64,000 bases of DNA from an uncultured Gammaproteobacteria bacterium (GCA_963729605.1 CAVSNY010000006.1:384001-448000), one strand, 5' to 3'; positions 42,044-63,891 are shown, counted from the stretch's first letter. The notes: a model not told the origin generated them from the letters alone. Translations and numbers: made by a program.

Positions 42044-42069
42044 CACATCCGGCCAACGGTTTTTTTTAT

Positions 42070-45240: not shown

Positions 45241-45254
45241 GCGTGGAGTCGATT

Positions 45255-45485
45255 AAGGCGGGGGTTGGCGCAGCGTAATCCCCGATCGCGCCAAGTGTTC
45301 CTTATGATGATTGATTGATGAGGCGCTGGGCGACGAGTTGGTGGGTTAGGCCGTTGCACAGCCAACCCACCCTCGTATCTCGATTCTTTCCTGCAAGTGG
45401 AGAATCGCCGTGTGATCATCGGGCAGAAATGTAGCCTGGATGTAACGAAGTGGAACCCGTTACGCTACGCTCCACCCAGTCTACC
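45255..45485. repeat. Cluster of degenerate REP-like palindromes
   Basis: GGGGTTGGCGCAGCGTAATCCC, GGTGGGTTAGGC...GCCAACCCACC and GTAGCCTGG...CCAGTCTAC; related to the REP at 26347. Confidence 0.6.
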
Positions 45486-45587
45486 TTTCCAGGGTAATCC
45501 CACCCATCTGCACCGCCAGGCCTTTCCCACGACACTGGCGGCCTTTGGGCAGATCGCGAAAACGCCGCCCAGTTCGGCCCATACCGG

Positions 45588-46712: not shown

Positions 46713-46746
46713 AAGTCTATTCCTTGATAGGGGGGCTATCTGTACG

Positions 46747-47187
46747 TTATTTGGCATTGCGATTCATTTCTTCGTGTAACACGCGAGTGCCTTCATCCAA
46801 GGCGGTCACGGCCTTTTGCGCCTTCGCGGCGCGGGTCTTGACCGTCGCGAGCTGGGCATCGACCTGGGCCTGTTCGGCCAATGTCAGCGCCTTTTGGTAT
46901 TCCTTGTCCGCCATGGCTTTATTGGCGGCAGCCAGTTTGTCCTGCGCCGCCTTCATCTCCACGGACGCAAATTCGGTGGCGCCGGCATTGGTCGCGTTGG
47001 TTACCGCTGCACTGGATACGGCCAACTGCTCGGTGGGCGCCGGGATGCTCGCGCAACCGGAAATGACTACGGCACAGACCATAACGCCCAGGGCGAGACG
47101 CCGTGAATAACGGGTTAACGCGGGTGTTATAGCCTTACTGGAATTTACTGCGGTTTTGTTAGGATGCACTTTACTCTCCTTATGCAT
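46747..47187 (-). CDS. DUF4398 lipoprotein
   Basis: ISGC lipobox; A..AGATEFA..E...A..KL, AEQAQVDAQLA; start uncertain. Confidence 0.85.
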   Translation of the reverse strand: MHKESKVHPNKTAVNSSKAITPALTRYSRRLALGVMVCAVVISGCASIPAPTEQLAVSSAAVTNATNAGATEFASVEMKAAQDKLAAANKAMADKEYQKALTLAEQAQVDAQLATVKTRAAKAQKAVTALDEGTRVLHEEMNRNAK

Positions 47188-47275
47188 GATTCAGGGCGCC
47201 TTGCGCCGGATTTAACGCATTCGAAGCTTGCGATACACGTCAATATGCGGAGAATACGTGGCGATGGGCGGACCG

Positions 47276-47374
47276 TCTGTGCGCTACCGTACCAAGCTCA
47301 GGTTTCTACTGGTGACGGTACGCTTGGGATGATGCAAGGGAACATATCATGCGGTATGTGCGCCGGCGTACAGA
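47276..47374. promoter_or_regulatory. Two copies of the palindrome TCTGTRCG-N4-CGTACAGA
   Basis: TCTGTGCG-CTAC-CGTACCAA (47276) and TATGTGCG-CCGG-CGTACAGA (47355) in the divergent DUF4398/Crp promoter. Confidence 0.6.
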
Positions 47375-47470
47375 CAACACGCAAATGACTTTCACCGTGA
47401 TACACTGCCGCACATTCCTCCACGCCGTCATGCAATCTCGCCGCGGACCGCAACTTCGGGAAATTGATTG

Positions 47471-48223
47471 ATGCCCACACCCCATAGTCCGATGCAAAAT
47501 CATCTTCTCGCCGCGTTGCCCGCTGCCGAGTTCGGCCGTTTGTCGCCCCATCTGGAACTGGTGACGATGCCGCTCGGTAAAGCCCTTTACGAATCGGGCG
47601 GCCGTCTGGAACATGTTTATTTCCCTACCACCTCCATCGTGTCGCTGCTGTACGTATTGGAAAACGGCGCATCAGCGGAAATAGCGGTGGTCGGCTATGA
47701 AGGAATACTGGGTATCTCGTTATTTATGGGTGGCGAAACCACACCCAGCCGCGCGGTAGTGCAGAGCGCGGGACACGGTTATCGCCTGGAAGCGCATCTA
47801 CTGAAACAGGAATTCAACCGGGCCGGGCCGGTGCTGCGTTTGTTGCTGCGTTATACCCAGGCGCTGATCACCCAGATGACGCAGACCGCGGTATGTAATC
47901 GCCATCACTCGGTCGAGCAGCAACTGTGCCGCTGGTTATTGCTAAGCCTCGACCGCTTATCCACCGACTCGCTGACCATGACCCAGGAGTTGATCGCTAA
48001 CATGCTCGGGGTACGCCGCGAAGGAGTGACCGAGGCCGCCGGAAATCTCCAGCGCGCGGGATTGATCCGCTACAGCCGTGGCCATATCGAAGTGTTGAAC
48101 CGACCGGGTTTGGAAAAGACGGTATGCGAATGCTACGGTGTGGTTAAACTGGAATTTGATCGTCTGCTTTCAGATATCCCTCGCGGCGATCCTTCTATGT
48201 CCTTGGCCAACCCGGCGCCGTAG
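47471..48223 (+). CDS. Crp/Fnr-family transcriptional regulator
   Basis: QNHLLAALP, HVYFP, QTAVCNRHHSVEQQLCRWLL, HTH TQELIANMLGVRREGVT. Confidence 0.93.
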   Translation: MPTPHSPMQNHLLAALPAAEFGRLSPHLELVTMPLGKALYESGGRLEHVYFPTTSIVSLLYVLENGASAEIAVVGYEGILGISLFMGGETTPSRAVVQSAGHGYRLEAHLLKQEFNRAGPVLRLLLRYTQALITQMTQTAVCNRHHSVEQQLCRWLLLSLDRLSTDSLTMTQELIANMLGVRREGVTEAAGNLQRAGLIRYSRGHIEVLNRPGLEKTVCECYGVVKLEFDRLLSDIPRGDPSMSLANPAP

Positions 48224-48319
48224 CTTGATACTCCGCGGGTGTTTATTGCGGTTGAACAAATTGATCAAGTTGATCGTGTTGATTTCAAATTCCCGTCGGC
48301 GGCGCCGAGTTCGCGCAGA

Positions 48320-49024
48320 TCACTGCGCCGGCGCCACCGACAACTCCCGCCGGCCACTCTCGGCCGAATCCGCATCCGGACTATTGCGATCAACCCACTC
48401 TTGACCGCGCCGTGCCAGCCACTCCGCCTCTTCCTTGGGCAGCGGGCCGCGCTTGAGGGTATTCTCCCATTCCCACAACGCGGCGCGGGCGCGCCGCACG
48501 TAATCTTCCGACGCCGGATCCGAAGGTGCGAGATGGATGTAGGTACGCATGGCGCCCAAGGCGACGGGCAGGTCATTCATGCCTTCCGCCGCGACCGCCA
48601 GGCCCCAATAGGCATTGCCTTGATAAGGCCGCAGGTCGACGGCGGTTTGGAAAAAATCCCGCGCCGCGGCGTATTGCTCCAAGCCCAACAGCGCATAACC
48701 CATGTTGACGTATGCCTCCGGCATGCGCGGCGCGAGGGCGATGACCCGGTGCAGGGCGGTGATGGCGTATTCGTATTCGCGGGCATGCAGCATCATCACC
48801 GCTTGCTGGAAGCGTTGGGTGATTTGTTCTTCGCGAGCGGCGCTGGCGTGTCCGCGCGGATCTAGCACCGGGTCGATGCGCGGGGCGACCGTGTCTTCCA
48901 AGGTCGCCAATTCCGGGCTGCGGCTGAGTCCGCCCAGCAGGCCGATGATGGCCAGCAGCAACAGCACTGACAGGAAAGAGGCGACCTTGGGCTGGCCGGC
49001 AATCACGCTATCGAGCGAACTCAT
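48320..49024 (-). CDS. Membrane-anchored TPR protein, last gene of the cytochrome cluster
   Basis: N-terminal TM; TPR motifs PEAYVNMGYALLG and NAYWGLA; overlaps the ccsA stop. Confidence 0.85.
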   Translation of the reverse strand: MSSLDSVIAGQPKVASFLSVLLLLAIIGLLGGLSRSPELATLEDTVAPRIDPVLDPRGHASAAREEQITQRFQQAVMMLHAREYEYAITALHRVIALAPRMPEAYVNMGYALLGLEQYAAARDFFQTAVDLRPYQGNAYWGLAVAAEGMNDLPVALGAMRTYIHLAPSDPASEDYVRRARAALWEWENTLKRGPLPKEEAEWLARRGQEWVDRNSPDADSAESGRRELSVAPAQ

Positions 49025-49878
49025 ATAACGCCTTTATGCGCGGCGGTGCTGTAGAAGGGCGTACCGAAATAGGTGAGGAAGGCGATGATGAAGATCGCGA
49101 TGATGAATACCGCACCGGCCCGCATCGGCAGTCGATAGGTCAAGCGCGCATGGATGGCGCCGCCTAAGGCCAGCCAGGTGAGAAACGACGAAGTTTCAAG
49201 CGCGTCCCATGACCAGTAACGGCCCCAGGCGTCCTGCGCCCACACCGCGCCGGCGATCAGCATGCCGCTGTGAAAGATAAAGGCGAGCAGCATGAAACGC
49301 CACGCCAGGTAATCGACCATGGCGTCATTGGGCAATTGGCGGAACCAAGGTTCCAGACGCCGCACGCCGCGCAGCAACAAAGCGCCGGCTAGACCGGTGC
49401 CGACCAGGCAGAAGCCGAGGAAGAATTTACCGAGACCGACATGCGCCCACAGCCAATTGTTGTAATAGGTGGGCGGAAAGGCGGTGTCGGTGGGTTCGAG
49501 CATCAACACCCACACACCCAGGATCCACATCAAGGGCAAGGCCACTACCGCGCTGGCGCGGATCGCCGGATAACGCCAATAGGCGTAGCTGTAAATGACG
49601 CCGAGGCTGAACAACTGGCTTATCAACAATTCGAAGAGATTGACGAATGGCCCGTGACCGATGCGCATCCAGCGTTCCGCCAAGGCCATCGCCAGCAGCG
49701 CGACGCCGGCGAGAATGAAGATGAACGCCGGGGTTTCGTAGCTGCGATTCACCGCGGCGCCCGCCGCGCCGCCGCGCGTCAGCACCACGCCGCGAATCAC
49801 AATAAAAGTGGCCAAGGCATACGCGGCCATTCCCGCCCACAACCAGGGTAGCTCGGTCATCGTTTTCCACTCATTCAT
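49021..49878 (-). CDS. ccsA: Cytochrome c biogenesis protein CcsA/ResC
   Basis: WWD motif GAVWAQDAWGRYWSWDALE, conserved His (WAHV, AIHA, AAHK), several TMs. Confidence 0.9.
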   Translation of the reverse strand: MNEWKTMTELPWLWAGMAAYALATFIVIRGVVLTRGGAAGAAVNRSYETPAFIFILAGVALLAMALAERWMRIGHGPFVNLFELLISQLFSLGVIYSYAYWRYPAIRASAVVALPLMWILGVWVLMLEPTDTAFPPTYYNNWLWAHVGLGKFFLGFCLVGTGLAGALLLRGVRRLEPWFRQLPNDAMVDYLAWRFMLLAFIFHSGMLIAGAVWAQDAWGRYWSWDALETSSFLTWLALGGAIHARLTYRLPMRAGAVFIIAIFIIAFLTYFGTPFYSTAAHKGVI

Positions 49879-50903
49879 ATTGCACCCCCTTTGGAAGAAG
49901 CGGGATATCTTCCCGCCTTCATTGCCTCGGCGGCCGCCCCGGCCGGCATGCGCGCGCCGAATTTACGCCAGAAATGGACGGACATGCCTATCACGCCGAA
50001 TACCGATATCACGAACAGCCACTGCAAGGTGGGATCGTAAAATATTTTATAACCCATCCAGGTCGACAGGCGTTCATACCGCAACTGTCCGCCGGGTAAA
50101 TTCACGGTCTCGCCCGGCTGTAGTTCGACGCGATCGGCGCCGGTGTTGACCACGAGCGTGCCTTTGGCCTTTTGGCCGTCCAATACCCACGCCGCTTTTT
50201 CCGTTATGCCGGTTTCGAGGCGCAGCCAGAATTTGATCTCCGGCCCACCGGGCGGCTGCCAGGTATTGTCCTGTTTGAATTCGAACAAGGGATAGGCCGG
50301 CATGTGCACCACGCCGGTCTGCGGCTCACCCCGCTCGGGCATCCAGGTCAGCAGCGGCGCGAAACCTTTGTTGAACGAGGTGTAGAAACGATAGCCTTCC
50401 AACACCAGAGGCCGGTCGTCACCGACTATGCGGCGTTCCCAACCGCCTTGCCCGTCCGGCACGCGCACCTCGCTGTGGGTGAGACCGCGTACCATGCCCG
50501 GCGCGTAATCGACGGTATAAGGCCCTTGCACGAAGACCAGTTTATCCAAATTACCCGCATGCCAGGGACCGCGGGTATCGTCGAACAATTCGTCGGCGGA
50601 AAACGGGGTGTCCTGCACCATCTCCACATGGGCCTCCAAGTGGGTGAGACGGCCTATCGCGGCCAATATCACCACGCCCAGCAGCGCGATATGAAACGTG
50701 AGCAGGCCGCCGCGGCGATTGATCCGCGGGTTGGTGATGATGGCGGCCAATAGATTGACCGCCAAAAACGCCATGGGCACCACCAGCACCCACACCGAGG
50801 TCGTCACCGGGTTGCCATAACTCAACCCCGCGCCGATGGCCAGCAACACCATGCCCACCAAGGTGAGCCGCAGGGAGGCGAGAGGTCTCAGGACGGCATT
50901 CAT
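49875..50903 (-). CDS. Cytochrome c biogenesis protein ResB/CcsB-like
   Basis: LASLRLTL N-terminus, TM His (FHIAL), periplasmic domain with PLVLEGYRFY, YDP then TM; coupled to ccsA. Confidence 0.8.
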   Translation of the reverse strand: MNAVLRPLASLRLTLVGMVLLAIGAGLSYGNPVTTSVWVLVVPMAFLAVNLLAAIITNPRINRRGGLLTFHIALLGVVILAAIGRLTHLEAHVEMVQDTPFSADELFDDTRGPWHAGNLDKLVFVQGPYTVDYAPGMVRGLTHSEVRVPDGQGGWERRIVGDDRPLVLEGYRFYTSFNKGFAPLLTWMPERGEPQTGVVHMPAYPLFEFKQDNTWQPPGGPEIKFWLRLETGITEKAAWVLDGQKAKGTLVVNTGADRVELQPGETVNLPGGQLRYERLSTWMGYKIFYDPTLQWLFVISVFGVIGMSVHFWRKFGARMPAGAAAEAMKAGRYPASSKGGAI

Positions 50904-53587
50904 GGAAGATTGTTGCAGGTTTCTTCACCGTTGCCGTTCATCCACGTAATACCTCGCTTGCCATTGCCCGGCGCGCCGGCTGAACCGCAACTGACCGGCG
51001 TCCATTCACCGCTGCGTTTGAAGTTGACCACCTTCAGCACCGAGCCGTTGTAATACGGCCCGCGGTAATAACGCTGCGGGCTGGGCGTGCGCACCTGAGT
51101 GCCCGCCGGCAAACCGGCTTCCAGTCCCACGTCGTTCAAGTTGACCAGGAAGTTTTTATTCTTCCAGCCGTGGGGCACGGCGATATGGCAGAAATTGCAG
51201 CGGAAATTGCGCACCACGTCTTCCTTGGCGTGACCGGTATGGAGATTGACGTTGGGCACGCCCACGCAAGACGCATTACCGGTGCTGCGCCGGAAACCGC
51301 TCTGCAAGGTTTGATTGCCGGCCAAAGGACCGGCGGGAAATGCTTTGCCGTAGTAATCGTAATTATGGCAGCGGAAACACAAGGCGTCGGGGGTGGCCGC
51401 GCCGGTATTGTCGTTCCACGGACCCTTCAGAATAAAATCATTGTTCGAACCGTGCGGTCCCCAGGAATTGCCTTGCGCACCGCCGCGCGGCACGGCGCCG
51501 TCATTGACGTCGGTATCCGAACCATGGCAATCGGTGCAATACATGGTCTGGGTACCTACGCCCGCGTTGAAAGGCGTTACCCAGACATCGGGACTATTGA
51601 TGCTGCGTACCGCGATCGTGCGCCCGGTGTCCTTGAGCGCGGGGTGCCAGGACCGATGATTGTTGTCCACCAGATTGACGCAGTTGCCCTGACTGTCACG
51701 ATAACCCGGCCAATTTTCCGAAGTCGCGTAATTGGCGTCGGTATAGGTGTCCTGGCATTCGCCTATGGCACCGGTGAAGAACGCGCCGGTCGGTGTAGTG
51801 GGAGTGCCCTCGCCTTTGTGATCGTCCGGCGATTGATATTCCATGGCCTGATTGGTGTATTGGAACATCGCGTTGGTCCCCGGCGGCGTACCGCCCCGGA
51901 AGGATCCCAGGTTGGGCGGTGAATCATACGCGTTGTTGGAGTGGCACTTCATGCACACCTGGTATTCGCGAGTGACGTAAGGCGCATTGACGTCGGTGCT
52001 GCCGCCCACGCCGGGATCACCGCGTTTGATCTCGAAGATCGTTGGCTCGCTGCCGAACTCGGTCGACGGCCAACCGCCCGGTTCCACGCCGGAAATACCG
52101 CGCAATACGCCGGAAGCCAAATTGGTGTGGATACCGCCGGTGGCGGCGAGCTGACTGGCGGTATGATTGTGGGTGCCTTCCTCCGGGTCAGGTATGTTGG
52201 GATCATCGTTGAATAACCGATTGCGGATCACCCGATGGGGATTGTGGCAGTCGGTACATTCCGCATGGCGGTTGTTGGGATCGCCTTTGCCCATGTGGAG
52301 AGTGGATTCCACGAAATCTTTACCGCCTTGCTGGCTCCTGAGCGGGCCGGTGCCAATGTCGTGCATCTCGCGCCCGGCCGGTTGATCGGCGCTGGCGATG
52401 GGCATGTGCCGGGCCATGGTGGTGAAGTCGGTTTTAATGTCGGGCACGCCGAAGCCGGGGCGGGTGCTTTGGGTGCCGCCGGTAGGACCGCCGCGCAGCA
52501 CGTCGCCGTCCGCCGAATGACAGGCGTAACAGGTTTCTTCGATGGCCGGTTGTCCCCCATGACGGAATTTGGCGCCGCTCGCGGTGATCGCCGGCGGGCC
52601 GTCGGCGCCTTCACGCAGAATGCGCCGCGAGCCTTGCACGGTGTGGGGATCATGGCAATTCAAACAGGCCGCCTGCCACACTTGGATGCCGCGGGGAAAT
52701 TCGCGGAGATCGGCCGCGGCATCTTGGTACTCATAGGTGGCGACGGCGGAGCTGGCGTGAGCCGAACCGACCCAGCCCGCCTTGTCGTGGCAGCCCAGGC
52801 AAATGATGTCGTTCTCGGCGTTGAACTGGCGATCCACCGGCTCTGCTCTCTGAAAGCGGTTCGCCCGCAGAAACTTGATATTTTCCCCCGAGGTATCGCG
52901 GATATGGGGATCGTGACAACTGACGCATTCCAAGCGATTTTCTTCCAAGGGCAGCAACGGCGCGGGCTGGCCTTGCACCCGGTCGCCCACATGGGCAACC
53001 ATAGCGGGATCATACAGCTCACCGTCACGCTCGGCTTGCGCGCTGTCGTAGGTAAAGGAGATGGGATGGTCGTTACGCAAATCCACGCCCAATCTGCGGG
53101 TGAAGCCGGTGGTGGATCCCATGCCTTCGGGAATGGTATCGCCCGGTCCGATGCCCGGGCCGGTGAAATCGATATTGGGATCTTCGACGCGATTGAGCAC
53201 ATTGACCGCGCCCAGGGCGAGGGTGCCGTCATGGCAGGATAAACACAATTTAGACTTGGCGCGCGGCTGATCCAGATCGATCGCGTCGAGCGAGCCGGAG
53301 GAATACGGCGTATAGGTGGTACCGGAGAGTTTGCGGTTCCACAACGGCGCCATGGGCGCCTTGGTCGCGCCGTGCGGCGTGTGACAGAAGGCGCATATCT
53401 GCGACTCGCTGCTGGCGGCGGCATTGCGTTGCGCGCCGTCGGGCAGGATGGGGATCACCGTCGCGGAAAAATTGTGCCTGGTGTTGCGGATATCGGAAAT
53501 ACGTTCGGCCTGCGCCGGCAGGGCGGATAAAATCAAACACGCAGCGGTCAGCGCGAGGATGCACCCGTTTCGCAGCGTCCGTATCAT
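50900..53587 (-). CDS. Undecaheme c-type cytochrome (UetJ-like)
   Basis: Signal peptide ending AQA; 11 CxxCH: CAFCH, CLSCH, CVSCH, CLGCH, CLNCH, CYACH, CTDCH, CMKCH, CTDCH, CFRCH, CNFCH. Confidence 0.95.
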   Translation of the reverse strand: MIRTLRNGCILALTAACLILSALPAQAERISDIRNTRHNFSATVIPILPDGAQRNAAASSESQICAFCHTPHGATKAPMAPLWNRKLSGTTYTPYSSGSLDAIDLDQPRAKSKLCLSCHDGTLALGAVNVLNRVEDPNIDFTGPGIGPGDTIPEGMGSTTGFTRRLGVDLRNDHPISFTYDSAQAERDGELYDPAMVAHVGDRVQGQPAPLLPLEENRLECVSCHDPHIRDTSGENIKFLRANRFQRAEPVDRQFNAENDIICLGCHDKAGWVGSAHASSAVATYEYQDAAADLREFPRGIQVWQAACLNCHDPHTVQGSRRILREGADGPPAITASGAKFRHGGQPAIEETCYACHSADGDVLRGGPTGGTQSTRPGFGVPDIKTDFTTMARHMPIASADQPAGREMHDIGTGPLRSQQGGKDFVESTLHMGKGDPNNRHAECTDCHNPHRVIRNRLFNDDPNIPDPEEGTHNHTASQLAATGGIHTNLASGVLRGISGVEPGGWPSTEFGSEPTIFEIKRGDPGVGGSTDVNAPYVTREYQVCMKCHSNNAYDSPPNLGSFRGGTPPGTNAMFQYTNQAMEYQSPDDHKGEGTPTTPTGAFFTGAIGECQDTYTDANYATSENWPGYRDSQGNCVNLVDNNHRSWHPALKDTGRTIAVRSINSPDVWVTPFNAGVGTQTMYCTDCHGSDTDVNDGAVPRGGAQGNSWGPHGSNNDFILKGPWNDNTGAATPDALCFRCHNYDYYGKAFPAGPLAGNQTLQSGFRRSTGNASCVGVPNVNLHTGHAKEDVVRNFRCNFCHIAVPHGWKNKNFLVNLNDVGLEAGLPAGTQVRTPSPQRYYRGPYYNGSVLKVVNFKRSGEWTPVSCGSAGAPGNGKRGITWMNGNGEETCNNLP

Positions 53588-54651
53588 GCGCCCTCTCTCA
53601 GGAACTGAAGTATGACCACCCGGCCATTAAAACTGTCGGCGATGTAGACCCGGTCGCGGTGATCGGTCCACACTCCCGCCGGCAGATAAAATTGCCCGAG
53701 CCCCCCGCCCGTACCGCCGATCGGCAACAATAACTCACCTTCGGGGTTGAATACTAACAAATAATCAAAATACGATTCTACCACATAGACATTGCCGTCT
53801 TTATCCACGCCGACGCCCTTGGGGCGCGGCATGTCGCCCACGAATATCCCGCGGCGGCCGAACACTTGCAAAGGCTCGCCATCGGCGGACACCACCTGCA
53901 CCCGGGCGTTGAGGGTATCCGTCACATAGAGCCGATTATCGGCGAAGCTCAAATATGTGGGGGAGTTATATTCACCGGCCGCCTCGCCGCGGTGACCGAA
54001 GGTTTTCACCAATTCGCCGCCGTCGCTGAATACTTTGATGGCGTGGCCGTGGGTGTCGGCCACATAAATCCGGCCGTTCTCCGCATCCCGCGCCACGCCC
54101 GTGGGCCGCACCAACTGGTCTTTACCAAGAATGCCGCGCGGAACACCGTCTTTATTCAAACGGACCACGTAACCCAGTTCCGCGTCGGCCACCAGGATTT
54201 CGCCGTCGGCGCCCAACGCGATCCCGATCGGGGCAACGAACCGGACATTGTCGCCGGCCATCTCCCACACCCGCAAACTACCGGCCTGCTCATCGAACAC
54301 ATAGACCGCTTGGCGGCTGACGTCGGTGACATACACCCGGCCCGCCGGGTCGGTCACTCCGCCCTGCGGCCGCTGCAAGACCACCGGCACATGTTTGGGC
54401 GAGGTCAAGCCGACCAGCCACTTCAAAAAGCGCGTGCCGCTGGACCCGAAACCTTGCTCGGGGACGTGGATATTTTGTTCGCCGACGAGCTCGCCCACAT
54501 ACTGATACCGCGGCGTCTCGGGCGGCGCGGGCCACACCGCCGTGAAAGGCGGATCGGGCTGATAACGCAGCGTGCTGTGGGTCGGCGCGCATCCCGCCAA
54601 TATCGCGGACGCGACCAACAACCCCGCCGCGAACTTGGCACGTCTCACCAC
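53584..54651 (-). CDS. NHL-repeat beta-propeller lipoprotein (UetI-like)
   Basis: LAGC lipobox; WPAPPETPR; six P.G....G..YV.D repeats. Confidence 0.9.
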   Translation of the reverse strand: MVRRAKFAAGLLVASAILAGCAPTHSTLRYQPDPPFTAVWPAPPETPRYQYVGELVGEQNIHVPEQGFGSSGTRFLKWLVGLTSPKHVPVVLQRPQGGVTDPAGRVYVTDVSRQAVYVFDEQAGSLRVWEMAGDNVRFVAPIGIALGADGEILVADAELGYVVRLNKDGVPRGILGKDQLVRPTGVARDAENGRIYVADTHGHAIKVFSDGGELVKTFGHRGEAAGEYNSPTYLSFADNRLYVTDTLNARVQVVSADGEPLQVFGRRGIFVGDMPRPKGVGVDKDGNVYVVESYFDYLLVFNPEGELLLPIGGTGGGLGQFYLPAGVWTDHRDRVYIADSFNGRVVILQFLREGA

Positions 54652-54667
54652 ACGACACCCCCCTTAT

Positions 54668-55723
54668 TTATTGTTGCGTTTTGAATCCGCCTGCCGAGAT
54701 CTTGAACACTTGGATACGGCCGTTGAGACTGTCGGCCACGTATAAAGACCCCCCATCCAGCCACACGTCGCTCACGCCGTTGAAGCGGCCGGGCCCCACC
54801 CCGGCGCCGCCAAGGGTCGCGACCAACTTACCTTGCTCGAATATCCGTACGGTGTTATTAAAAAAGTCGGAGACGTAAGTTTGATTATCGGCGTCGACCG
54901 CCACGGCATTGGGAAACACCACGGTATCGGGATCGAAGGCGTATTTGAACGCGCCTTCCTCCGAGAGGACTTGGGCGCGATGGGCGAAACGCGCGGTGAC
55001 ATATACACCGTCGGGACCGCGAGCCATGGAGGTGATATTCAAGAATTCACCCTCGCCTTCACCGCGGCCACCCAGGGCGCGCCACAAACCGCCCGCGCCA
55101 TTGAAGATCAACACGTGATCGAGCACGCCGTCGGCGACGTAGACATCGCCGGTGGTCTCGTCCACCGACACCGCCACCGGCCGCCGCAGATTCATGGAAT
55201 CCTGGAAGGTGGCCTCCAGACGGCCATTGCGATTGAACTTGAGCACCTTGCCGCCGACGCTATCGGCGAGATAAAACGTGCGGTCGCCGGTGACGAAGAT
55301 ATCCGCCACATCGCCGACCACCAGCCCGCGCAAACTGACCAGCACTTCCTGGGTTCCGGAAATACGATCATAAAGGATCACCTGCTGCTGATCGGCATCG
55401 ACCACGTACACCCAGTGATCTTTGGCCGCCACCGCCACCGGACGGCGGAAACGCGCATCCTGCAAGAGCACCAGGCCTTCCGTGTCGCCGGTCATCACCG
55501 GCCGCAGCTCGCCGTTGCCGAAAAAGGCGTTGCCGGTCCGGCCGCCACTGATGCTTTCTTCAAAATAAATTTGGGTCGAACCGGTCTCGGCGACCACCAC
55601 GCCTTCGGCGCCCGAGGACATGGGGGTGCCGCCGAACATGGAACATCCGTTCAGTAGCCAGGTGCTGCCGATCAGCAGCGCGGTCAGCGCAGCCCGGCGG
55701 AATCGCGCGGTACGGAGTGGCAT
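54668..55723 (-). CDS. NHL-repeat beta-propeller lipoprotein (UetH-like)
   Basis: LNGC lipobox after the ATG at 55723; repeats PVAVA..YVVD, GDVYVAD, LYVADSLNGRIQVF. Confidence 0.88.
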   Translation of the reverse strand: MPLRTARFRRAALTALLIGSTWLLNGCSMFGGTPMSSGAEGVVVAETGSTQIYFEESISGGRTGNAFFGNGELRPVMTGDTEGLVLLQDARFRRPVAVAAKDHWVYVVDADQQQVILYDRISGTQEVLVSLRGLVVGDVADIFVTGDRTFYLADSVGGKVLKFNRNGRLEATFQDSMNLRRPVAVSVDETTGDVYVADGVLDHVLIFNGAGGLWRALGGRGEGEGEFLNITSMARGPDGVYVTARFAHRAQVLSEEGAFKYAFDPDTVVFPNAVAVDADNQTYVSDFFNNTVRIFEQGKLVATLGGAGVGPGRFNGVSDVWLDGGSLYVADSLNGRIQVFKISAGGFKTQQ

Positions 55724-56286
55724 CGTCCACAATTCATGGTGGGAGGGAAGGCGACCTTGCCATGGCAAACACCGCAGTATTTGCCTTGGATGATGTCCGA
55801 CATGGTAACCGGATTTGCCCCTTTCTGGGGAAGAAAAATCGCGGGATGGCAATTGGCGCAGGTCAACCATTCCGTGTGGGCCAAATGGGGAAAGCGCACG
55901 AAGGGCATGGAACCGGTATTCTTGAAAATGATGTCGAAGTCGGCGACATACATATCCTTGTCGCCCAGCTTGCTCTGCCGCGCGTCGATCATGCCCTTTT
56001 GCAGCACTTGCACCCAATCGATGATGCCGGCGGCGTCGCGCGGGAAATCCTTCATGGATTCCACCGGCTCTTGGAAAATGGTGACGGCGCTGTTGGTGGG
56101 ATCGTGGATACCGTCTTCGATGACGGGCACCACCTCACCTTCGGTTTGGAAGTGCAGGCCCTTGGTCCACACCGGGCCATCTTCCGCGTGCGCCACGACG
56201 GCCCAACCGAAAAACAGGGCGATGGCCACAGCGAAATATCCGCGGAGATTATTCTTAAACGCGTATCGCTCGACGCCTTTATTCAT
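55684..56286 (-). CDS. Periplasmic triheme c7-like cytochrome (UetG-like)
   Basis: Signal peptide ending AHA; VRFPHLAH, CANCH, CGVCH, CGRCH. Confidence 0.92.
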   Translation of the reverse strand: MNKGVERYAFKNNLRGYFAVAIALFFGWAVVAHAEDGPVWTKGLHFQTEGEVVPVIEDGIHDPTNSAVTIFQEPVESMKDFPRDAAGIIDWVQVLQKGMIDARQSKLGDKDMYVADFDIIFKNTGSMPFVRFPHLAHTEWLTCANCHPAIFLPQKGANPVTMSDIIQGKYCGVCHGKVAFPPTMNCGRCHSVPRDSAGLR

Positions 56287-56408
56287 GCTGTCCCCATTTG
56301 GCATGCCACGCCCCTGCGGGCGTGGGCTCGGGTAATATAACGTGTTTTCGAGACAAGTCACACTCAAAAACGCGCGCTTGTCCGCGCCACCCTCGGCCTA
56401 CGGGACGA

Positions 56409-58028
56409 CTATTGCACACCCGCCAGCCGCAAAGCCCTTTGTATCCTTTCGGTCGCCGCCTGCATCGCCATCACGGCCATTTTGTGATCGCCCTTGGCCG
56501 CCAATCCCAAGGCCTCGTCATGAACCTCGGTGGCGCGACCGGTCAGTTCGTGCATCATGGTCACCGTTTGCGGCGCCGGACGGCGTTGCTCGATGGCCAC
56601 GGGCACCAGTTCCACGTAACTGCGGTAACGGGACAGCTCGAACTCATATTCATCTTTAGGCGAGGCGAAGTTCTTGTCATAGACCACGGTCTGCGAGTGC
56701 AACATCGCGCTCAAGGCCGCGGTGATCAGCTCATTGGCCGATTCCAGCCGCTTGGCCGCGCCTTCGTGATCGCCTTTGCCCGCCAGGCTTTCCGCCTCGC
56801 TCAGCAGCTTGTCGTATTTGGCCTTGTCCAATTCCTCGCCCGCTTTACCGGGCTTCATGCCCTGCGCCACGTTTTTCTGGTAAGAGGCCTTAAAACCGCC
56901 GACCTGTTCCAGCAAGGCGGCGTAACGGGCTTTGTGGTCCACCGCCGGTTGCTCGGGAACTAAACGGGTGGCGGCATTCATCATCCGCAAGGCCTCGTCC
57001 ACCGAGCCCATGGCCTGGTTATTATCACCGGCGGCGAGCGCGGTACGCACGGCGATCAACTGCTCCTTCGCCCCGGCGACCAAGGCTTGCGCCTCGGCGT
57101 TATTACTGGCGGCCACCCGCTTGGCGGAGGCGGACGAGCCGATCAGCATATCCGCGAAACTCAGCTTCTGCTTCACTTGCTCCGCCGTATAGTTGCGGAC
57201 TATCGGGGTCTCTGCCGCGGGCAGCGCGGGCGGCGCACCCAAGCTCACCTTTTCCCCAGCGTTGACCACGTGAATCCTGCCACCCATATAAGCGTGGTTA
57301 CGGCATTCGTAATACACCTCGTCCGGTGTCGTGGCCGACGGTGTAAAGGTCGCGTCGCCCTTGAAAATAAACTGGCCGGTGATACCGTCGGTCAAGGTGC
57401 CCGCACCGCGGCCCACCGGGCTGGTCGTGAAATAAAAATCGTGCATCACCCCGGTGTCCAAACTAAACGTGTAGGTTACGCCGCGGGTCAGCACCAGCTC
57501 TTTGCCCTGCACGCCGTCCGTCACGAACGCCATGTCCGAACCACGGCCGAAATAAGGGTGACTGGCGTCCTTGGGTCCGGCGACCAACTGAAAAGTTCGC
57601 GGTGTACGATCAGCCACTACGGTGACCGGACCGGGGCGTTGCGCGGCCGGCACGCTTGCCGCGGGTTTGGACGGGACCGGGCTGGGCGCCACTACGGCGG
57701 GGGGCGCGACTACCGGCGCAGGCGCCGCAGCGGGCGGAACGGCTTCGGCGGTTGGAACAACGTCGGCGGGTGGCGCGGATAAATCGGTTTTATTTTCCGG
57801 CGCGGTCTGCGGTGATTCCTCTACCGGCGCGGACGGGGCCTCCGTGCTGCCGGCCTCCGGTTGCGTGAGGGCGTCGTCCGTGGTGGTGGCGACTACACTC
57901 GGCGATTGCGCCGACATGACCGGCGCCGGCGCGGCGGTCTGCGCGACCTCTTTCTTTTCACCGGTGGACACACACGCCGTCATCGCCACCGCGATCGCCA
58001 GACATAACAATTTACGCTTTGAGTTCAT
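56409..58028 (-). CDS. Lipoprotein: Pro/Ala linker + cupredoxin-like domain + helical repeats (UetF position)
   Basis: Lipobox MTAC; low-complexity linker; MHDF...YYECRNHAYMGG; three A.GD...A helical repeats. Confidence 0.8.
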   Translation of the reverse strand: MNSKRKLLCLAIAVAMTACVSTGEKKEVAQTAAPAPVMSAQSPSVVATTTDDALTQPEAGSTEAPSAPVEESPQTAPENKTDLSAPPADVVPTAEAVPPAAAPAPVVAPPAVVAPSPVPSKPAASVPAAQRPGPVTVVADRTPRTFQLVAGPKDASHPYFGRGSDMAFVTDGVQGKELVLTRGVTYTFSLDTGVMHDFYFTTSPVGRGAGTLTDGITGQFIFKGDATFTPSATTPDEVYYECRNHAYMGGRIHVVNAGEKVSLGAPPALPAAETPIVRNYTAEQVKQKLSFADMLIGSSASAKRVAASNNAEAQALVAGAKEQLIAVRTALAAGDNNQAMGSVDEALRMMNAATRLVPEQPAVDHKARYAALLEQVGGFKASYQKNVAQGMKPGKAGEELDKAKYDKLLSEAESLAGKGDHEGAAKRLESANELITAALSAMLHSQTVVYDKNFASPKDEYEFELSRYRSYVELVPVAIEQRRPAPQTVTMMHELTGRATEVHDEALGLAAKGDHKMAVMAMQAATERIQRALRLAGVQ

Positions 58029-58224: not shown

Positions 58225-58911
58225 CTAACGCCAGGGATTCTTAAGCGTGGCGTCGCTCAACGGCGGCGACCAATCCGCGGGCTTGGGCTTGGAGTGGCAC
58301 TTGGAGCAGGTCTTGGTGGTGATCGGGAAAGAAACCTTGCCATGACACACACCGCACTTCTGTCCCAACAGAATGGCCGACATATTGATTTGGTTGGCCC
58401 CTTTCTGCGGGATGAAGATGGCGGGATGACAGTTGGCGCAGGACAGCCATTCGGTGTGTTGACGATGGGGGAACACCACGTCCGGCACCGAGGCCTTCAC
58501 CTCGCGGACGATATCCATGTCCATCACGAAGGGCTCTTCGCTGGAATCGATACGGTCCCAGCGGGGTGAGAGCTTCTTCTCGTCGATGGCCTTCACCCAG
58601 TCGACATGATTGCCGAACTCGGTGGTGGGCAGACCTTTATAGGCCTCCTTAGGCGGCTGGAGAATATGGGTGCCTTCGTTCTCCGGATCGTGATAGCCGC
58701 TCTCCGGCGGCGCCGCGTTGGGATCCTTTTCCTTCTTCAAATTGCGGTTGAAGGTGTTGGAGGACGAGACATCGGCGAGCATCAAGCGTTCGCCGGGCGC
58801 CGCCTGCTGCATGGCACCACTAAACAGACCCGCGTCCGCGGCGAAGGCGGAAGCAGAAACCAGCAGGGTCAACACCGCTGATCCTACAAAGATTTTCAAT
58901 TGTTGTGTCAT
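58225..58911 (-). CDS. Periplasmic triheme c7-like cytochrome (UetE-like)
   Basis: Signal peptide ending AFA; VVFPHRQH, CANCH, CGVCH, CSKCH; GAGGAG RBS. Confidence 0.92.
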   Translation of the reverse strand: MTQQLKIFVGSAVLTLLVSASAFAADAGLFSGAMQQAAPGERLMLADVSSSNTFNRNLKKEKDPNAAPPESGYHDPENEGTHILQPPKEAYKGLPTTEFGNHVDWVKAIDEKKLSPRWDRIDSSEEPFVMDMDIVREVKASVPDVVFPHRQHTEWLSCANCHPAIFIPQKGANQINMSAILLGQKCGVCHGKVSFPITTKTCSKCHSKPKPADWSPPLSDATLKNPWR

Positions 58912-58935
58912 GACCACGCTCCTCACATTGACCGG

Positions 58936-59382
58936 TTACTGTTTGGCAGGCTGTTGTGGAGCGTTGAGCGCCTTATAAGGTGGCGACACTAGACGCTGCA
59001 CGGTGCTCCCGTGAATGTGGGTCGGCGTGCCAGGTATGCCGGAATGGCACATATTGCAGTTCTCCACGGACCAAGCCACCTCCCCGTTATGGCAAGCGCC
59101 GCAGAATTTACCGTCGATGATCTTGGCCATGGTGATCTTGTTGCCGCCGGCTTTGAACTCGAATCCCAGGTCGGCATGACAGACCTTGCAAGTGAAACGA
59201 ATACGATGAAACCAGTGCGGGAATACCACGGGACGCATACCGGCCGCGTCGGCGTAATTATTAATGATCACATCGGCATATTCCGCTTTGGCGGGGGTCA
59301 TGGCCAGCAGGGCCAGTCCCGCTAACACCCCCAAAATGGAAAATCTCCATTTGATGCTACGGTCGGCTTTGTAGGACGTCAT
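58936..59382 (-). CDS. Periplasmic triheme c7-like cytochrome (UetD-like)
   Basis: Signal peptide ending AKA; VVFPHWFH, CKVCH, CGACH, CNMCH; GAGGAG RBS. Confidence 0.92.
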   Translation of the reverse strand: MTSYKADRSIKWRFSILGVLAGLALLAMTPAKAEYADVIINNYADAAGMRPVVFPHWFHRIRFTCKVCHADLGFEFKAGGNKITMAKIIDGKFCGACHNGEVAWSVENCNMCHSGIPGTPTHIHGSTVQRLVSPPYKALNAPQQPAKQ

Positions 59383-59460: not shown

Positions 59461-61212
59461 TTAAAATCGGCGCATCACGCGAAAGTATAAGAGCTGCGAA
59501 GCCTCGTGGCCGTTATCCATCCATCTGAAACTCAGGCTGGCGTCCACCAATCCGATGGTGTAATTCAGGCGGTTTTCCCATTCGTTGCGATCCAAACCCT
59601 CACCCGTGGAGGCTTGCGAGAGCCGCAGGTCGGAGTTGAATTGCAGGCGCGGAATACTGAACAGGGTTTGCTGAAGATAACTGATCTGACCGGTGGTGGT
59701 GGTCACCGAGCCGTCATTGGCTCCACCGGAGAAATCGCGCACCACCGTCTGCAACGTCAAATGGCCCGACAACGTGCTGCGCGCACCCAAGGCCTGATAA
59801 CGCGAGGCCTGCAAATTCACCAGCTGCTGCTCATCGCTCAGATCACCGAAATTACGCGAATCCGACAAGGTGAGTTGCACCAGGGTGGTCGCACCCTGAG
59901 TGGACGACTGATTCCAGCCCAAGCTTGCGCTGTGATCCAGGCGATGCTGAGTGGCCTCATCACCGGTGGTCAACACCTCGTTGAAGGCCTGAGTCAGACC
60001 CACGCGCAAAGACGATTGCGGGTCCAGCATCCACATCCTCTGCGCATCGTGACCCAATGAGGCCTGTAACGACTGGACGTTTTCATCCACGTCGCTCTGG
60101 TTTTCCAGCGCGCCGCTGACATACCACTGATACGTAAAACTCCGCCATTCGATCAGATCGGATTGCAGCAGGGCGCCAAGTCGCTGGCGATGCAGGGTTT
60201 GATTGGCGCCATTGATATCCGACTGACTGAAATTGGCGCTGCCGTCAAAGCGCAGCCGTTTCGAATATTGATAGAAGGCGCCCGCCGTCGCGCCGAAGCT
60301 GGCTTGATCGCTGGATTGCGCGGAATTTTCGCCGGCCATGGTATAGGCGCGCGCGCCCGCGCTGACCGTCCAGCGTTTATCGACCGGCCGCCAGAACGTG
60401 AAGCTGGATACCTGGTTGATTTCCGTGGTGACGGTATCCACCAAGCCGGTCGCCCCTTCGAAGGTGGTATCGAGATGGTAATGGCTGGCCTTGGTGTCGA
60501 GCCGGATATCCTCGTTGGGGAAATAATAATGATCGACGTCGAGAATGAAATTTTCTTGGTGGCGATCGGTGCGCGACTGATCGGTGGTTTCTATATTGCC
60601 GCGGAACAACAAGCGCTGGCGGACCGGCCGCCAGTCCAATTCCACGCCCATAATTTCGTTTTCATAGGTACCGCTCAGGTCCGAATCCCAGGTGCGCGCA
60701 CCATATCGCAACTGGGCGCGATGGCCTTCTTCGGTGATGTACGATTGCCGCAAATCCAAATTGGTGGTTTGGTATTCCGAACCGAACACCCGCACCAGCG
60801 GGTTGTAGACCACGGTATTGTCCACCCGGCTGTCGGTGGCTTGATACAACAAGCGGAAAGGGGTGCGGCTGTCCGGCAACACGTTGAGCATCAGGTCGCC
60901 GGAATACACGTCCGAGGTGGTGCTGGTGCTGGCGTTGCCGTCGTCCAGGTCCGAGCTGTCCTTGGCCAGGGTGGCGCCGCCCTCGACGGTGGCGAACCAC
61001 GGCTGCCAGATATAAGAGCGTAAGCGCAGATTTCCCAACAACTGGTTGCTGGTGGCGTCGGTGGTATCGGTGCTGAGCGAACGGAAACTGTAACCCACGC
61101 TGCCTGACACATCCACGGGCAAGGCGCGCGCCGCGGGGCACACGGACACCAGCGCCACCAGCGCCAAGCCCTGGGTGACGTGAGATGCGAACGCAGCACA
61201 GACCCGTCTCAT
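59461..61212 (-). CDS. Large outer-membrane beta-barrel (UetB/C-like)
   Basis: Signal peptide ending ARA; about 580 aa of Ser/Thr/Gln-rich amphipathic strands; C-terminal LYFRVMRRF ends in Phe (BAM signal). Confidence 0.85.
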   Translation of the reverse strand: MRRVCAAFASHVTQGLALVALVSVCPAARALPVDVSGSVGYSFRSLSTDTTDATSNQLLGNLRLRSYIWQPWFATVEGGATLAKDSSDLDDGNASTSTTSDVYSGDLMLNVLPDSRTPFRLLYQATDSRVDNTVVYNPLVRVFGSEYQTTNLDLRQSYITEEGHRAQLRYGARTWDSDLSGTYENEIMGVELDWRPVRQRLLFRGNIETTDQSRTDRHQENFILDVDHYYFPNEDIRLDTKASHYHLDTTFEGATGLVDTVTTEINQVSSFTFWRPVDKRWTVSAGARAYTMAGENSAQSSDQASFGATAGAFYQYSKRLRFDGSANFSQSDINGANQTLHRQRLGALLQSDLIEWRSFTYQWYVSGALENQSDVDENVQSLQASLGHDAQRMWMLDPQSSLRVGLTQAFNEVLTTGDEATQHRLDHSASLGWNQSSTQGATTLVQLTLSDSRNFGDLSDEQQLVNLQASRYQALGARSTLSGHLTLQTVVRDFSGGANDGSVTTTTGQISYLQQTLFSIPRLQFNSDLRLSQASTGEGLDRNEWENRLNYTIGLVDASLSFRWMDNGHEASQLLYFRVMRRF

Positions 61213-61513
61213 TGTTATTATCGCGCGCCCCTCAGTGACATATCCCCTCGAAGCCTCCACCCGGCGCTCCCCCGGATGGCGAGCTACAACGCGCGCGCGG
61301 ACATTGCCCCCGTCCGCCGTCGTGCGCATTGCCGCGCGCCGTAAATTTTTTCACCTTAAGCGACCTCGCACCTCAATGCAAGATCACTCGCCCTCAACGA
61401 CCGGCGCCACTCATTTTTAATCGCCTAGCGGCGCCCACTCTCCCTTGCCCGCCCTGATGTCGCCCGACAATCCCTCCTTGATCGGGACTGAAAATTAATA
61501 CATCGGCCGCAAT

Positions 61514-62329
61514 TTATTTATTATGACAAGTTAAACACACGGCGCTGCCCGCTGGGTCAACGCGAAGGAAAGTGGGGGTCTCATCCACGTGGGGATCATG
61601 GCAGGAGCCGCACTCCACATAAGGCTGCGCCTCGCCCGCATACGCCCCCCGCGTCGCCACCCGGGTATACAGCTTCATATCGGTACGTTCGAAGGATTGA
61701 GTCCCCTCGGGGGTATTGACCCACCACACCCGGCTGGTGCCCATGATCTCTGAATTGGCGGGATGAAAATCCCGGTCCGCGCCCGGTCCGCCCGCGTTCG
61801 ACAGTGAATAACCACCACCCGCGTATTGAATACCGATAGGATGGTCGTTGGTGAGATCCTTGCCCAAATTAGTGATCACCGCCGGCCGGCCGATGCGGCC
61901 TTGCGCGGGCCGCGCCTGTCCGCTCCAGGCCCCGTTGCGAAAACCGGGCACCTGCACGCCGGAGCCCGGCTCGTTGATCAAGGTATCCATGGCTTGCGTG
62001 CCGTCGTGGCAGGAAAGGCAGGCGACCGAGACCGAACCTATCGGCTCGATGGACCCATCGAGGGTGGTGGTGCCGAGTTGATCGTAGGTTTCGTAGCCGG
62101 TGGGGTCGATGTTGCGGTTCCATAATGGAACGGCCGCGCTGGCGTTGGCCCCATGAGGCGTATGACAAAATACGCAGATCTCCCGCGTGCCGTCGATATT
62201 GCTCACGGCATTCAGCCCCCCCGCACTCAAGTTGTGCTTGGTATTAAATACGCCGCCGAGGCTCACGCCCCCCGCCAACCACAGCAGCGTCGCTCCGGCA
62301 AAAACCAAAGCGCGATAACCGGTTTTCAT
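61514..62329 (-). CDS. Tetraheme cytochrome c, OmcE-like (UetA position)
   Basis: Signal peptide; NTKHNLS, ICVFCHTPH, PLWNR, CLSCHDG, NLGKDLTNDHP, ECGSCHDPH, FLR, CLTCHNK. Confidence 0.9.
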   Translation of the reverse strand: MKTGYRALVFAGATLLWLAGGVSLGGVFNTKHNLSAGGLNAVSNIDGTREICVFCHTPHGANASAAVPLWNRNIDPTGYETYDQLGTTTLDGSIEPIGSVSVACLSCHDGTQAMDTLINEPGSGVQVPGFRNGAWSGQARPAQGRIGRPAVITNLGKDLTNDHPIGIQYAGGGYSLSNAGGPGADRDFHPANSEIMGTSRVWWVNTPEGTQSFERTDMKLYTRVATRGAYAGEAQPYVECGSCHDPHVDETPTFLRVDPAGSAVCLTCHNK

Positions 62330-62612
62330 CACTCGCCCCTTTAAAGGGTTTTCCGCCGTCAGATTTTGTCAACTTAGGCGCTAAGTTACAAGTGTTTAAA
62401 CTGACTATGGCCATCGGCGCGCAAAACCTTGTGATTCGCCCGCTTCCAAAGTTAGTCAAAACGGCGCGGGAGCCGAAAATGACCGCGCATCAAAACCAGC
62501 GGCCGCGGCCCTTCCCGTCTCAACGCCTCATCAAACGCGCTTGATTATTTTAGCGACGTCGCCTGACAGTGGAGCAACCGTTGACCGTTCACATCCAACC
62601 GGACATATCGAC

Positions 62613-62663: not shown

Positions 62664-63710
62664 TTATTTCGAAGAAAATTTATGGTTGATACCCAATGAC
62701 AGGGCCGACGCATCCTGGCCGGTCACCGAGTTCAACCTGGTCAAGTCATAATTGCCATTGTCGCCATTGCTCATCAGGTTGTACATCGCGTACAACTCGG
62801 TGTTCTTGGTGAAGTTGCGAAACACGCCCAAGGCGAAATGGGTGGCGCCGGAATCGGCCTCCGAGTCTTTTTCATCGGCCATGGCGACCGAACCCTTCAG
62901 CGTATAACCCTCCAGCTTATGGGCCACGCTCACCAGAAAGGCATTGCGCTGATTGTCGGCGCCGCCCTCATCGGCGCTTTCAAAAATCGCCCCCACCGTG
63001 GTGGGACCGAAGGCATAGCTGCCGCCCACCTTCATGGCCACCGCATCGTCGCCGTTGGTGTGATAGGCATTGAGCGACTCGTAAGCGGCGGTGAGGTACC
63101 AGGGACCGCTGTTGTAACTGCCGTTCACGCTGTAGACATCGCGATCGCTCTACCGCGTGGTCATGGGCAGATCGTCATCGCCCCGATGATCGGCAAACAC
63201 ATAGCCCAGCATCGCGCTGAAGCCGTTCATGCTCGGCGTCGTGTAGATGATAATGTTGGAGGCGCGGCGATCGAACAATTTATTGCCGTCGTCCACGCTG
63301 CCGATGATGGCGTTGAAATCGCCCTTGGTCTCGGCAAAGATATCCAGCTTGGAGGTGGCCCTTTTATAGGGGGTATCGTGTTTGCCCGCCAGCACCTGAC
63401 CAAATCCGCCCGTCAGACCCACAAAGGTGTTGCGCTGGCTGCTGAACGCCGCGCCGTCGTCAAAATCCACCTGCTGCTCGATCTGCCACAAGGCGGCGAG
63501 TCCGTTACCCAAATCCTCGTCGCCCTTGAAACCCAGACGGGAATCGTAGCTGGTCAGACTAATGGCGCTGTCTTCATTGCCCGCCGTGGGGTCATTATTG
63601 TTATTGAAATCCAACGAGACATAAGCCGCCCCATACACCTCCACGCCGGCCTGCGCCAACGGCGCCATCATGGCAGCCACGACACCCGCGGCGATCATAT
63701 GTTTATTCAT
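62664..63710 (-). pseudogene. General trimeric porin (Porin_4 type) interrupted by an in-frame TAG at 63150-63152
   Basis: MNKHMIAAGV...AQA, SRLGFKGDEDLGNGL, RNTFVGL.GGFG; the frame continues after TAG as SDRDVYSVNGSY...GINHKFSSK. Confidence 0.85.
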
Positions 63711-63891
63711 TATTCCCCCTCGACTATATTGAACCCCGTCTAAATCAACCCCGTCGATCAAAAACCGCCTTGCGCCGCGCGCTGGTCTGATGTTGATATC
63801 TTCCCGTGAAAAATCAGCACGGTAATCGCTCAACAGTCTAACAGTAGCGCATAGCCGCCTTTGTCACAACGCTCTCCTGCATGCGTTTCTC

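Follow-up and report, generated by a model that had tools for sequence, protein, structure and literature searches.

A putative filament-forming cytochrome of the OmcE family at the head of the uet cluster in an uncultured gammaproteobacterium

The gene considered here encodes a tetraheme c-type cytochrome and lies on the minus strand, near the end of a 64,000-nucleotide stretch of DNA (referred to as the window) from an uncultured Gammaproteobacteria bacterium (GCA_963729605.1 CAVSNY010000006.1:384001-448000). Judged by its sequence and its neighbours, the gene is already known, as the uetA that opens the previously named uet cluster. Its product is, with near certainty as far as sequence comparison can tell, a member of the family of OmcE, for which extracellular cytochrome filaments have been solved. 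The reading preferred here is that UetA is a secreted OmcE-family tetraheme cytochrome that polymerises, that it belongs to the uet cluster of a Tenderiales-like, RuBisCO-bearing gammaproteobacterium, and that electrons most likely flow inward. The probability of this reading is placed at about 0.55. Two points make the case of interest: the uet and omcE clusters can be brought together, and the undecaheme cytochrome UetJ contains an OmcE-like module. An earlier note, generated from the sequence alone, had described the gene as an OmcE-type nanowire subunit. Its observation and its claim of homology to OmcE are right, in that the gene encodes, by all sequence criteria, an OmcE-family cytochrome; what it missed is that the gene is an orthologue of the published uetA of the Tenderiales uet cluster.

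The full uetA open reading frame (ORF) covers 61514-62332 on the minus strand and 272 residues, of which 271 are counted from the ATG at 62329. This codon is the likely start because a Shine-Dalgarno-like GGGG run lies 6 nt 5′ of it, and the translation agrees with the coordinates given in the earlier note, likely start included. The motifs quoted there (NTKHNLS, ICVFCHTPH, PLWNR, CLSCHDG, NLGKDLTNDHP, ECGSCHDPH, FLR and GSAVCLTCHNK) are all present in the translated protein in the same order. Four CxxCH motifs occur at residues 52, 104, 240 and 265, counted from the same ATG. UetA has nine histidines, eight of which are invariant in an alignment of 113 relatives sharing 50-97% identity. Such invariant histidines comprise the four of the CxxCH motifs together with H33, H60, H164 and H248 (P0001 numbering); the ninth, H190, varies. 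The count of four hemes with four candidate distal histidines is thus borne out, with all eight ligands conserved. Exactly four CxxCH motifs are found in each of the 113 relatives, and each of them also ends in C..CHxK.

The relationship with OmcE is the best-founded part of the analysis. In a phmmer search of all PDB chains, UetA matches the OmcE of D. soudanensis WTL (9YUQ) with an E-value of 7.8e-28 and that of Geobacter sulfurreducens (7TFS) with 4.9e-24, and beyond these two the best match reaches only 0.2. The first of these entries represents an OmcE bundle (PMC13712944). The likeness to the OmcE motif series given in the earlier note is therefore real and far above chance. The alignments span residues 9-172 and 231-272, and a hand count of the printed alignment with 9YUQ gives approximately 40% identity over about 200 aligned residues. 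The note had named a likeness limited to the CxxCH motifs as the result that would speak against it. The likeness extends further, as the motifs NTKH, PLWNR, NLGxDLxNDHP and FLR are also common to UetA and the solved OmcE proteins, and each of the eight invariant histidines pairs with a histidine in both 7TFS and 9YUQ. All three chains stop two residues past the last CxxCH. UetA therefore resembles the OmcE nanowire subunits across the whole heme core, in the four CxxCH motifs, in the four additional histidines and in the end of the chain.

The family is large and is hidden behind a generic name. No OmcE model was found in Pfam or NCBIfam, where UetA obtains only a generic doubled-CxxCH domain, and for this reason its relatives carry the name "cytochrome c3 family protein". 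A profile built from the 113 sequences and searched against 1.84 billion sequences, clustered at 50% identity, retrieved 5393 representatives with an E-value of 1e-3 or lower, of which 3591 reached 1e-10 and 658 reached 1e-30. A UetA relative is encoded by at least 584 of the 599 candidate stretches taken from species-representative genomes. Among the matches listed, the relatives belong mostly to uncultured Gamma- and Betaproteobacteria, some of them labelled as groundwater or hydrothermal-vent metagenome-assembled genomes (MAGs), and the closest ones come from a groundwater gammaproteobacterial MAG (94% identity), from MAGs labelled Chromatiaceae and from Candidatus (Ca.) Tenderia sp. MAGs (72-74%).

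One part of UetA is its own. The segment between approximately residues 167 and 241 (window 61820-62030; RVWWVNT...DMKLYTR) is conserved and beta-rich, with D188, F189, D218, L221, Y222 and R224 invariant among the 113 relatives. The solved OmcE proteins are reportedly only about 3% beta-strand. In an AlphaFold2 model computed from the same relatives and without hemes, this segment forms a small beta-sheet with a predicted local distance difference test (pLDDT) of 80-91, which is the sole part modelled with confidence; the mean pLDDT of the chain is 57.4, and the heme-binding stretches fall below 50. A Foldseek search with this low-confidence, heme-free model of a coil-rich cytochrome returned no PDB match at E <= 0.001. 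The prediction of a complex of two mature UetA chains with only four of the eight hemes scored 0.01 against a mark of 0.42 and gives no answer.

The gene neighbourhood identifies the cluster. In 2022, Eddie et al. named the uetA-J, ccsAB and nrfG genes of the electroautotrophs Ca. Tenderia electrophaga/Tenderiales, and called the product of the first of them "tetraheme cytochrome UetA" (bioRxiv 10.1101/2022.05.06.490989, referred to below as the uet preprint). The order in the window is uetA-C-D-E-F-G-H-I-J, followed by the ccs genes and a TPR gene, which agrees with the earlier statement that the gene stands first in its cluster. The sequence of gene kinds (tetraheme, barrel, two c7 trihemes, large lipoprotein, c7 triheme, two NHL proteins, undecaheme, ccs and TPR) corresponds to that of the Tenderiales cluster, and UetJ carries 11 CxxCH motifs in both. 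The differences are the lack of uetB between uetA and uetC, and the lack of bat genes after the TPR gene, where no batABD gene was found among the eight ORFs examined (38513-48865). The arrangement is widely kept among related loci. Where at least 2.5 kb of sequence is available, uetA has a UetC homologue downstream of it (70/70 loci). All 66 loci offering at least 4.5 kb continue with uetC-D-E, and the complete set of eight genes from uetC to uetJ occurs in 54 of the 57 that offer at least 9.8 kb, with L057, L061 and L082 as the exceptions. Among carriers not labelled as MAGs, Ideonella sp. A 288 (L059) gives tblastn matches to every protein from UetC to UetJ, and Thalassotalea sp. G2M2-11 (L057) has a reduced cluster; Leptothrix cholodnii is a further carrier named in the uet preprint. 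Strict colinearity was counted in 43/54; in some loci, the best-match starts of adjacent or paralogous genes are out of order, which is not read as rearrangement.

A similar set of genes accompanies OmcE. The minimal omcE cluster described in 2026 contains OmcE, a large barrel, two beta-propeller lipoproteins and two multiheme cytochromes, and adjoins resB/ccsB (PMC13712944). According to that report, nanowire-competent OmcE genes are defined by their neighbours, and cluster-associated homologues occur mainly in Thermodesulfobacteriota and Pseudomonadota. The window encodes a barrel, two NHL lipoproteins, three c7 trihemes, the undecaheme and ResB/CcsA, a likeness by gene kind. With the barrel model, the lipoproteins, the multihemes and the ResB/CcsA pair in place, every element of the omcE gene content is thus found in the window. 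The barrel itself has no Pfam or NCBIfam match and is recognised by its structure. The AlphaFold2 model of UetC, based on 52 orthologues, has a mean pLDDT of 91.0 and 28 long strands, and Foldseek aligns it in the PDB only with large outer-membrane barrels, the best template modelling score (TM-score) being 0.40 for MtrB (6r2q_B). For an orthologue of UetC, the uet preprint likewise reports 28 strands, with a pore of roughly 5 nm. The systems also differ. The uet cluster belongs here to an aerobic bacterium that fixes CO2, whereas OmcE nanowires come from anaerobic metal reducers; the uet cluster has its three c7 trihemes, a 539-residue lipoprotein and an undecaheme carrying an OmcE-like module; and filaments have been seen for OmcE but for no UetA. 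A text search of the uet preprint, over its available text, found no mention of OmcE, and a literature search found no text joining uet with OmcE, with the figures and supplements of PMC13712944, including its Pseudomonadota examples, lying outside that search.

The second main observation concerns UetJ. A search of the bacterium's own genome with UetA revealed two paralogues, one of which is the N-terminus of UetJ (E 2.8e-19). This region contains the motifs NTRHNFS, ICAFCHTPH, PLWNR, CLSCHDG, LRNDHP, ECVSCHDPH, FLR and ICLGCHDK, and matches 7TFS with an E-value of 1.7e-19 and 9YUQ with 3.3e-18 (phmmer), and UetA with 3e-22 (BLASTP). The T.HN[LF] motif was found in all 54 UetJ orthologue N-termini examined, and four CxxCH motifs, two CxxCHxxH motifs and NDH in 42/42 of the orthologues with at least 255 residues available. 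In a quick maximum-likelihood tree, one branch (Shimodaira-Hasegawa-like approximate likelihood ratio test, 93) parts 32 UetA sequences from 43 rows of the UetJ module, and matching subclades appear on both sides. Such a pattern suggests that the duplication is older than the dispersal of the cluster through these lineages; the tree is effectively unrooted and comes from the quick search, the careful one being unfinished. This second, complete OmcE-like module is a new point relative to the description in the uet preprint, in which UetJ is said to have "no other conserved functional domains". The stand-alone members of the family stop two residues past heme 4, as seen in each of the 113 relatives in the alignment and in nine of the ten longer ones examined. 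UetJ instead runs on past the module with seven more hemes. UetJ may therefore sit at one of the two ends of a UetA polymer, serving as anchor, adaptor or tip.

The longer relatives of UetA were considered as possible natural tandem fusions of two OmcE-like modules, and none of the ten is such a fusion. In nine of them the additional sequence is an N-terminal extension only and the C..CHxK end is kept, and the remaining one resembles a frameshifted read-through. Distant members of the family (P0242, P0243, P0250, P0256 and P0262) have approximately 130-400 residues before the first conserved histidine motif and also retain the C..CHxK end. Separately, a third OmcE-like paralogue of 265 residues with five CxxCH motifs was observed at L003 1327-2124 (-), equivalent to G000:C7 ~781.9-782.7 kb. 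It lacks the histidine that normally comes after the first heme motif, another residue standing there (CVYCHLPP), and it is followed by a gene for an NHL lipoprotein (L003 108-1250, minus strand). This paralogue resembles both the five-heme "OmcE-like" class, suggested as a possible new nanowire family (PMC13712944), and the "secondary cytochrome cluster" described in the uet preprint.

The export and polymerisation of UetA are proposed because of its homology with two solved OmcE filaments and because of the common gene set. By sequence and family assignment, UetA carries a Sec-type signal peptide, and heme-attachment proteins of System II, CcsBA, are encoded within the cluster itself. The mature protein would leave the cell through the 28-strand barrel UetC, or be mounted on it, and the NHL beta-propeller lipoproteins UetH and UetI may help in this export or mounting. 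The subunits would then polymerise head to tail, with one of the eight conserved histidines completing a heme of the neighbouring subunit, and the result would be an insulated chain of bis-His hemes. In the periplasm, the c7-type trihemes UetD, UetE and UetG would connect the barrel to the inner membrane. Electrons would flow inward, taken up from a solid donor, as has been proposed for Ca. Tenderia electrophaga. The polymerisation of UetA or UetJ, in the manner of the Geobacter polymers, was already floated in the uet preprint. On homology and gene content, filament formation by UetA is plausible. In a broader proposal, aerobic CO2 fixers would use the uet cluster as a nanowire machine of the OmcE type run for electron uptake and equipped with its own adaptor subunit, UetJ. 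This protein would join one end of the filament by the same exchange of histidine and heme and, with its additional hemes, would extend the chain into or through the barrel toward the periplasmic c7 trihemes, or could equally form the distal tip. This broader proposal is regarded as unlikely to hold in full.

The level of expression expected for a filament subunit bears directly on this proposal. The earlier note had taken the gene to be highly expressed and saw in the gap of about 300 bp next to it the mark of a structural subunit set apart from the rest; neither idea fared well. The codon adaptation index (CAI), trained on 31 ribosomal-protein and elongation-factor genes, is 0.559 for uetA, the lowest value in the cluster. 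This corresponds to the 37th percentile of 2401 background ORFs, a set picked greedily and including some spurious ones, which if anything flatters uetA. The genes from uetC to uetJ fall between the 39th and 72nd percentiles. Both genes for the RuBisCO large subunit (cbbL) reach the 99th-100th, so translational selection is detectable in this genome. As to the gap, it measures 301 bp if uetC starts at its 40th codon, and only 184 bp from the longest uetC ORF. In most relatives this space is occupied by uetB, a peptidyl-prolyl isomerase (PPIase) gene present in 72/80 related loci, of which the 335-residue PPIase gene filling the space after uetA in L014 is an example. The gene is absent from the window and its five closest relatives (L006-L009 and L045), and only these six have the short gap, which is 230-419 bp in the five. 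A tblastn search of the bacterium's own genome with the UetB of L014 found only distant PPIase paralogues on other contigs (25-39% identity). The RNA of the spacer (61213-61513) folds better than its shuffled versions, with a z-score of -2.8, and includes a 14-bp hairpin. In a consensus scan, the coding strand of the spacer proved free of terminator-like sites, and the one such site on the minus strand lies inside uetA. The same scan showed nothing promoter-like on the coding strand in the region upstream of uetA, and no FNR/CRP-type box (TTGAT-N4-ATCAA, with up to 2 mismatches) was found between uetA and the upstream porin gene. Parts of the stretch occur in RNA libraries, one of them possible and one declared. 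Metatranscriptome contigs are 95-99% alike over pieces of uetJ, uetE/D, uetC and uetA, evidence that cannot rank the genes and that DNA carry-over could also produce.

Several considerations weigh against polymerisation. The eight conserved histidines are also expected in a monomer in which all hemes are ligated within the subunit, and the ligand count does not discriminate between the two. UetA is about 40 residues longer than mature OmcE and carries the conserved beta-rich segment 167-241. The solved OmcE wires come from metal reducers, the OmcE of D. soudanensis titrating at -145 mV (PMC13712944), and a bis-His wire leading to an oxygen-reducing chain would need another potential window. 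Finally, the low codon adaptation of uetA counts against a very abundant product, as a higher rank would be expected for a subunit of which each filament needs thousands. It is mainly this last result that keeps filament formation near even odds.

A serious contender, to which clearly less than even odds are given, is that UetA does not polymerise and acts over nanometres, as an extracellular or barrel-inserted cytochrome in a porin-cytochrome complex of UetC with UetA and/or UetJ, in the manner of MtrCAB. Such a conduit, with interacting UetA and UetJ, was proposed in the uet preprint. The modest codon adaptation of uetA suits a stoichiometric component better than a bulk subunit, and the beta-rich insert specific to UetA could be a docking surface. 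The likeness to MtrCAB and MtoAB lies in an outer-membrane barrel standing beside multiheme cytochromes and in the TM-score of UetC, which is highest for MtrB. It does not extend to sequence, since UetC has no family match to MtrB or PioB and its 28 strands exceed the 26 of MtrB, and the uet cytochromes are unrelated to MtrA and MtrC, save for generic CxxCH-domain matches below the cut-off. Against the conduit also stand the two experimentally studied members of the family, both of which are filaments (7TFS and 9YUQ), and the presence of the same kinds of genes, a barrel with two propeller lipoproteins, next to filament genes (PMC13712944). The free C-terminus two residues past heme 4, kept in 113/113 relatives, is likewise common to the filament formers. 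Very improbable is the remaining option, that UetA is a soluble periplasmic tetraheme carrier, or a substrate of assembly or maturation, with no extracellular role and with a likeness to OmcE confined to the tetraheme core. A Sec signal peptide alone is no proof of passage beyond the periplasm, and three periplasmic-type c7 cytochromes are already encoded in the cluster; however, the constant barrel gene downstream of uetA, the localisation predictors that place a UetA orthologue outside the cell (the uet preprint), and the homologues of known location, which are extracellular filaments, all speak against it.

The direction of electron flow is suggested by the physiology of the host. The assembly comprises 3.48 Mb in 7 contigs and is 94.5% complete. 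The description of the host as a RuBisCO-bearing gammaproteobacterium is confirmed by two large-subunit genes and by the gammaproteobacterial MAGs that are its closest listed relatives. One divergent full-length and two truncated CcoN-like heme-copper oxidases were found, with scores below the ccoN cut-off and above that of COX1. No SoxB, DsrA or NarG exceeded its cut-off in this 94.5%-complete genome, and an electron donor is not evident from the standard markers. With RuBisCO and a heme-copper oxidase present, and these three markers not found, the flow of electrons is most likely inward. Such a marker set agrees with the view of the Tenderiales as aerobic autotrophs that live on extracellular electrons, and RuBisCO with CcoN-like oxidases are lifestyle markers common to this bacterium and Ca. 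Tenderia. The features on which the analysis draws are collected in Table 1.

Table 1. Location of the uet genes and of other features in the window (1-64,000) or, where marked G000, elsewhere in the same genome.
Feature	Position	Strand	Description	Basis
uetA	61514..62329	-	OmcE-family tetraheme c-type cytochrome, 271 aa; Sec-type signal peptide, without lipobox	
uetA-uetC spacer	61213..61513	-	301 bp; uetB (PPIase) position in most relatives	
uetC	59461..61212	-	large outer-membrane beta-barrel, 583 aa from M40, ~28 strands, C-terminal ...FRVMRRF	AlphaFold2 model
uetD	58936..59382	-	c7-type triheme, 148 aa	PF14522 E 4.1e-16; TIGR04257 nanowire_3heme E 3.8e-19; three CxxCH
uetE	58225..58926	-	c7-type triheme, 233 aa	PF14522 E 8.8e-12; three CxxCH
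uetF	56409..58028	-	lipoprotein, 539 aa, lipobox AMTAC	no CxxCH; only sub-threshold Pfam match
uetG	55684..56304	-	c7-type triheme; start uncertain (56304 or 56286)	PF14522 E 1e-12; three CxxCH
uetH	54668..55723	-	NHL beta-propeller lipoprotein, 351 aa, lipobox LLNGC	
uetI	53584..54651	-	NHL beta-propeller lipoprotein, 355 aa, lipobox ILAGC	NHL E 6.2e-26
uetJ	50900..53587	-	undecaheme cytochrome, 895 aa, 11 CxxCH	Paired_CXXCH_1 E 4.2e-26
UetJ N-terminal OmcE-like tetraheme module	52778..53500	-	~residues 30-270	
resB/ccsB-like gene	49875..50903	-	cytochrome c biogenesis protein (System II)	PF05140 E 2.2e-9
ccsA-type gene	49021..49878	-	cytochrome c assembly protein (System II)	PF01578 E 5.5e-25; TIGR03144 E 9.6e-32, below its cut-off
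TPR gene	48320..49024	-	TPR protein, NrfG-like in the uet paper	TPR families
RuBisCO large-subunit genes	23914-24840; G000:C2:179971-180897			
CcoN-like oxidase genes	G000:C7:654283-658204 and 667201-667578			

Among the less typical members of the cluster is UetF, whose orthologue is named a cupredoxin-domain protein in the uet preprint. Beyond the TPR gene, the eight ORFs examined between 38513 and 48865 encode, or resemble genes for, a Crp-like regulator, a DUF4398 protein, an OmpA protein, an RlmL-like methyltransferase, a DUF4332 protein, a subtilase and two proteins without a Pfam match. In Geobacter, a subtilisin-like protease matures OmcZ. The subtilase of the window (38513-40810, minus strand) is predicted to be secreted, has Peptidase_S8, PPC and PKD domains and lies approximately 8 kb past the end of the cluster, with no link to uet shown. 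On the other side, just upstream of uetA, a Gram-negative porin gene (62664-63833, minus strand) is interrupted by an in-frame TAG at 63150-63152. Its 227-residue N-terminal and 154-residue C-terminal halves match the two halves of Pfam Porin_4, and the gene may be a pseudogene, a sequencing error or a case of read-through.

Solved cytochrome nanowires are so far known only from two archaea and from metal reducers that live anaerobically. If UetA polymerises, the same device would serve bacteria whose CO2 fixation draws on electrons taken in from minerals, cathodes or partner cells. Such polymerisation could also explain the long-range conductivity noted for the biocathode community of Ca. Tenderia electrophaga (the uet preprint). 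The uet and omcE literatures seem to deal with a single kind of machine and not to cite one another, and joining them offers testable predictions each way, from Geobacter genetics for uet and from the physiology of oxidisers for OmcE. According to the omcE report, the OmcE operons examined encode no OmcE-like tip candidate (PMC13712944), and its module makes UetJ a specific candidate for the subunit, anchor or tip, that was not found there. If UetJ is indeed such an end subunit, it would answer how OmcE-type wires are anchored or terminated in the uet branch of the family.

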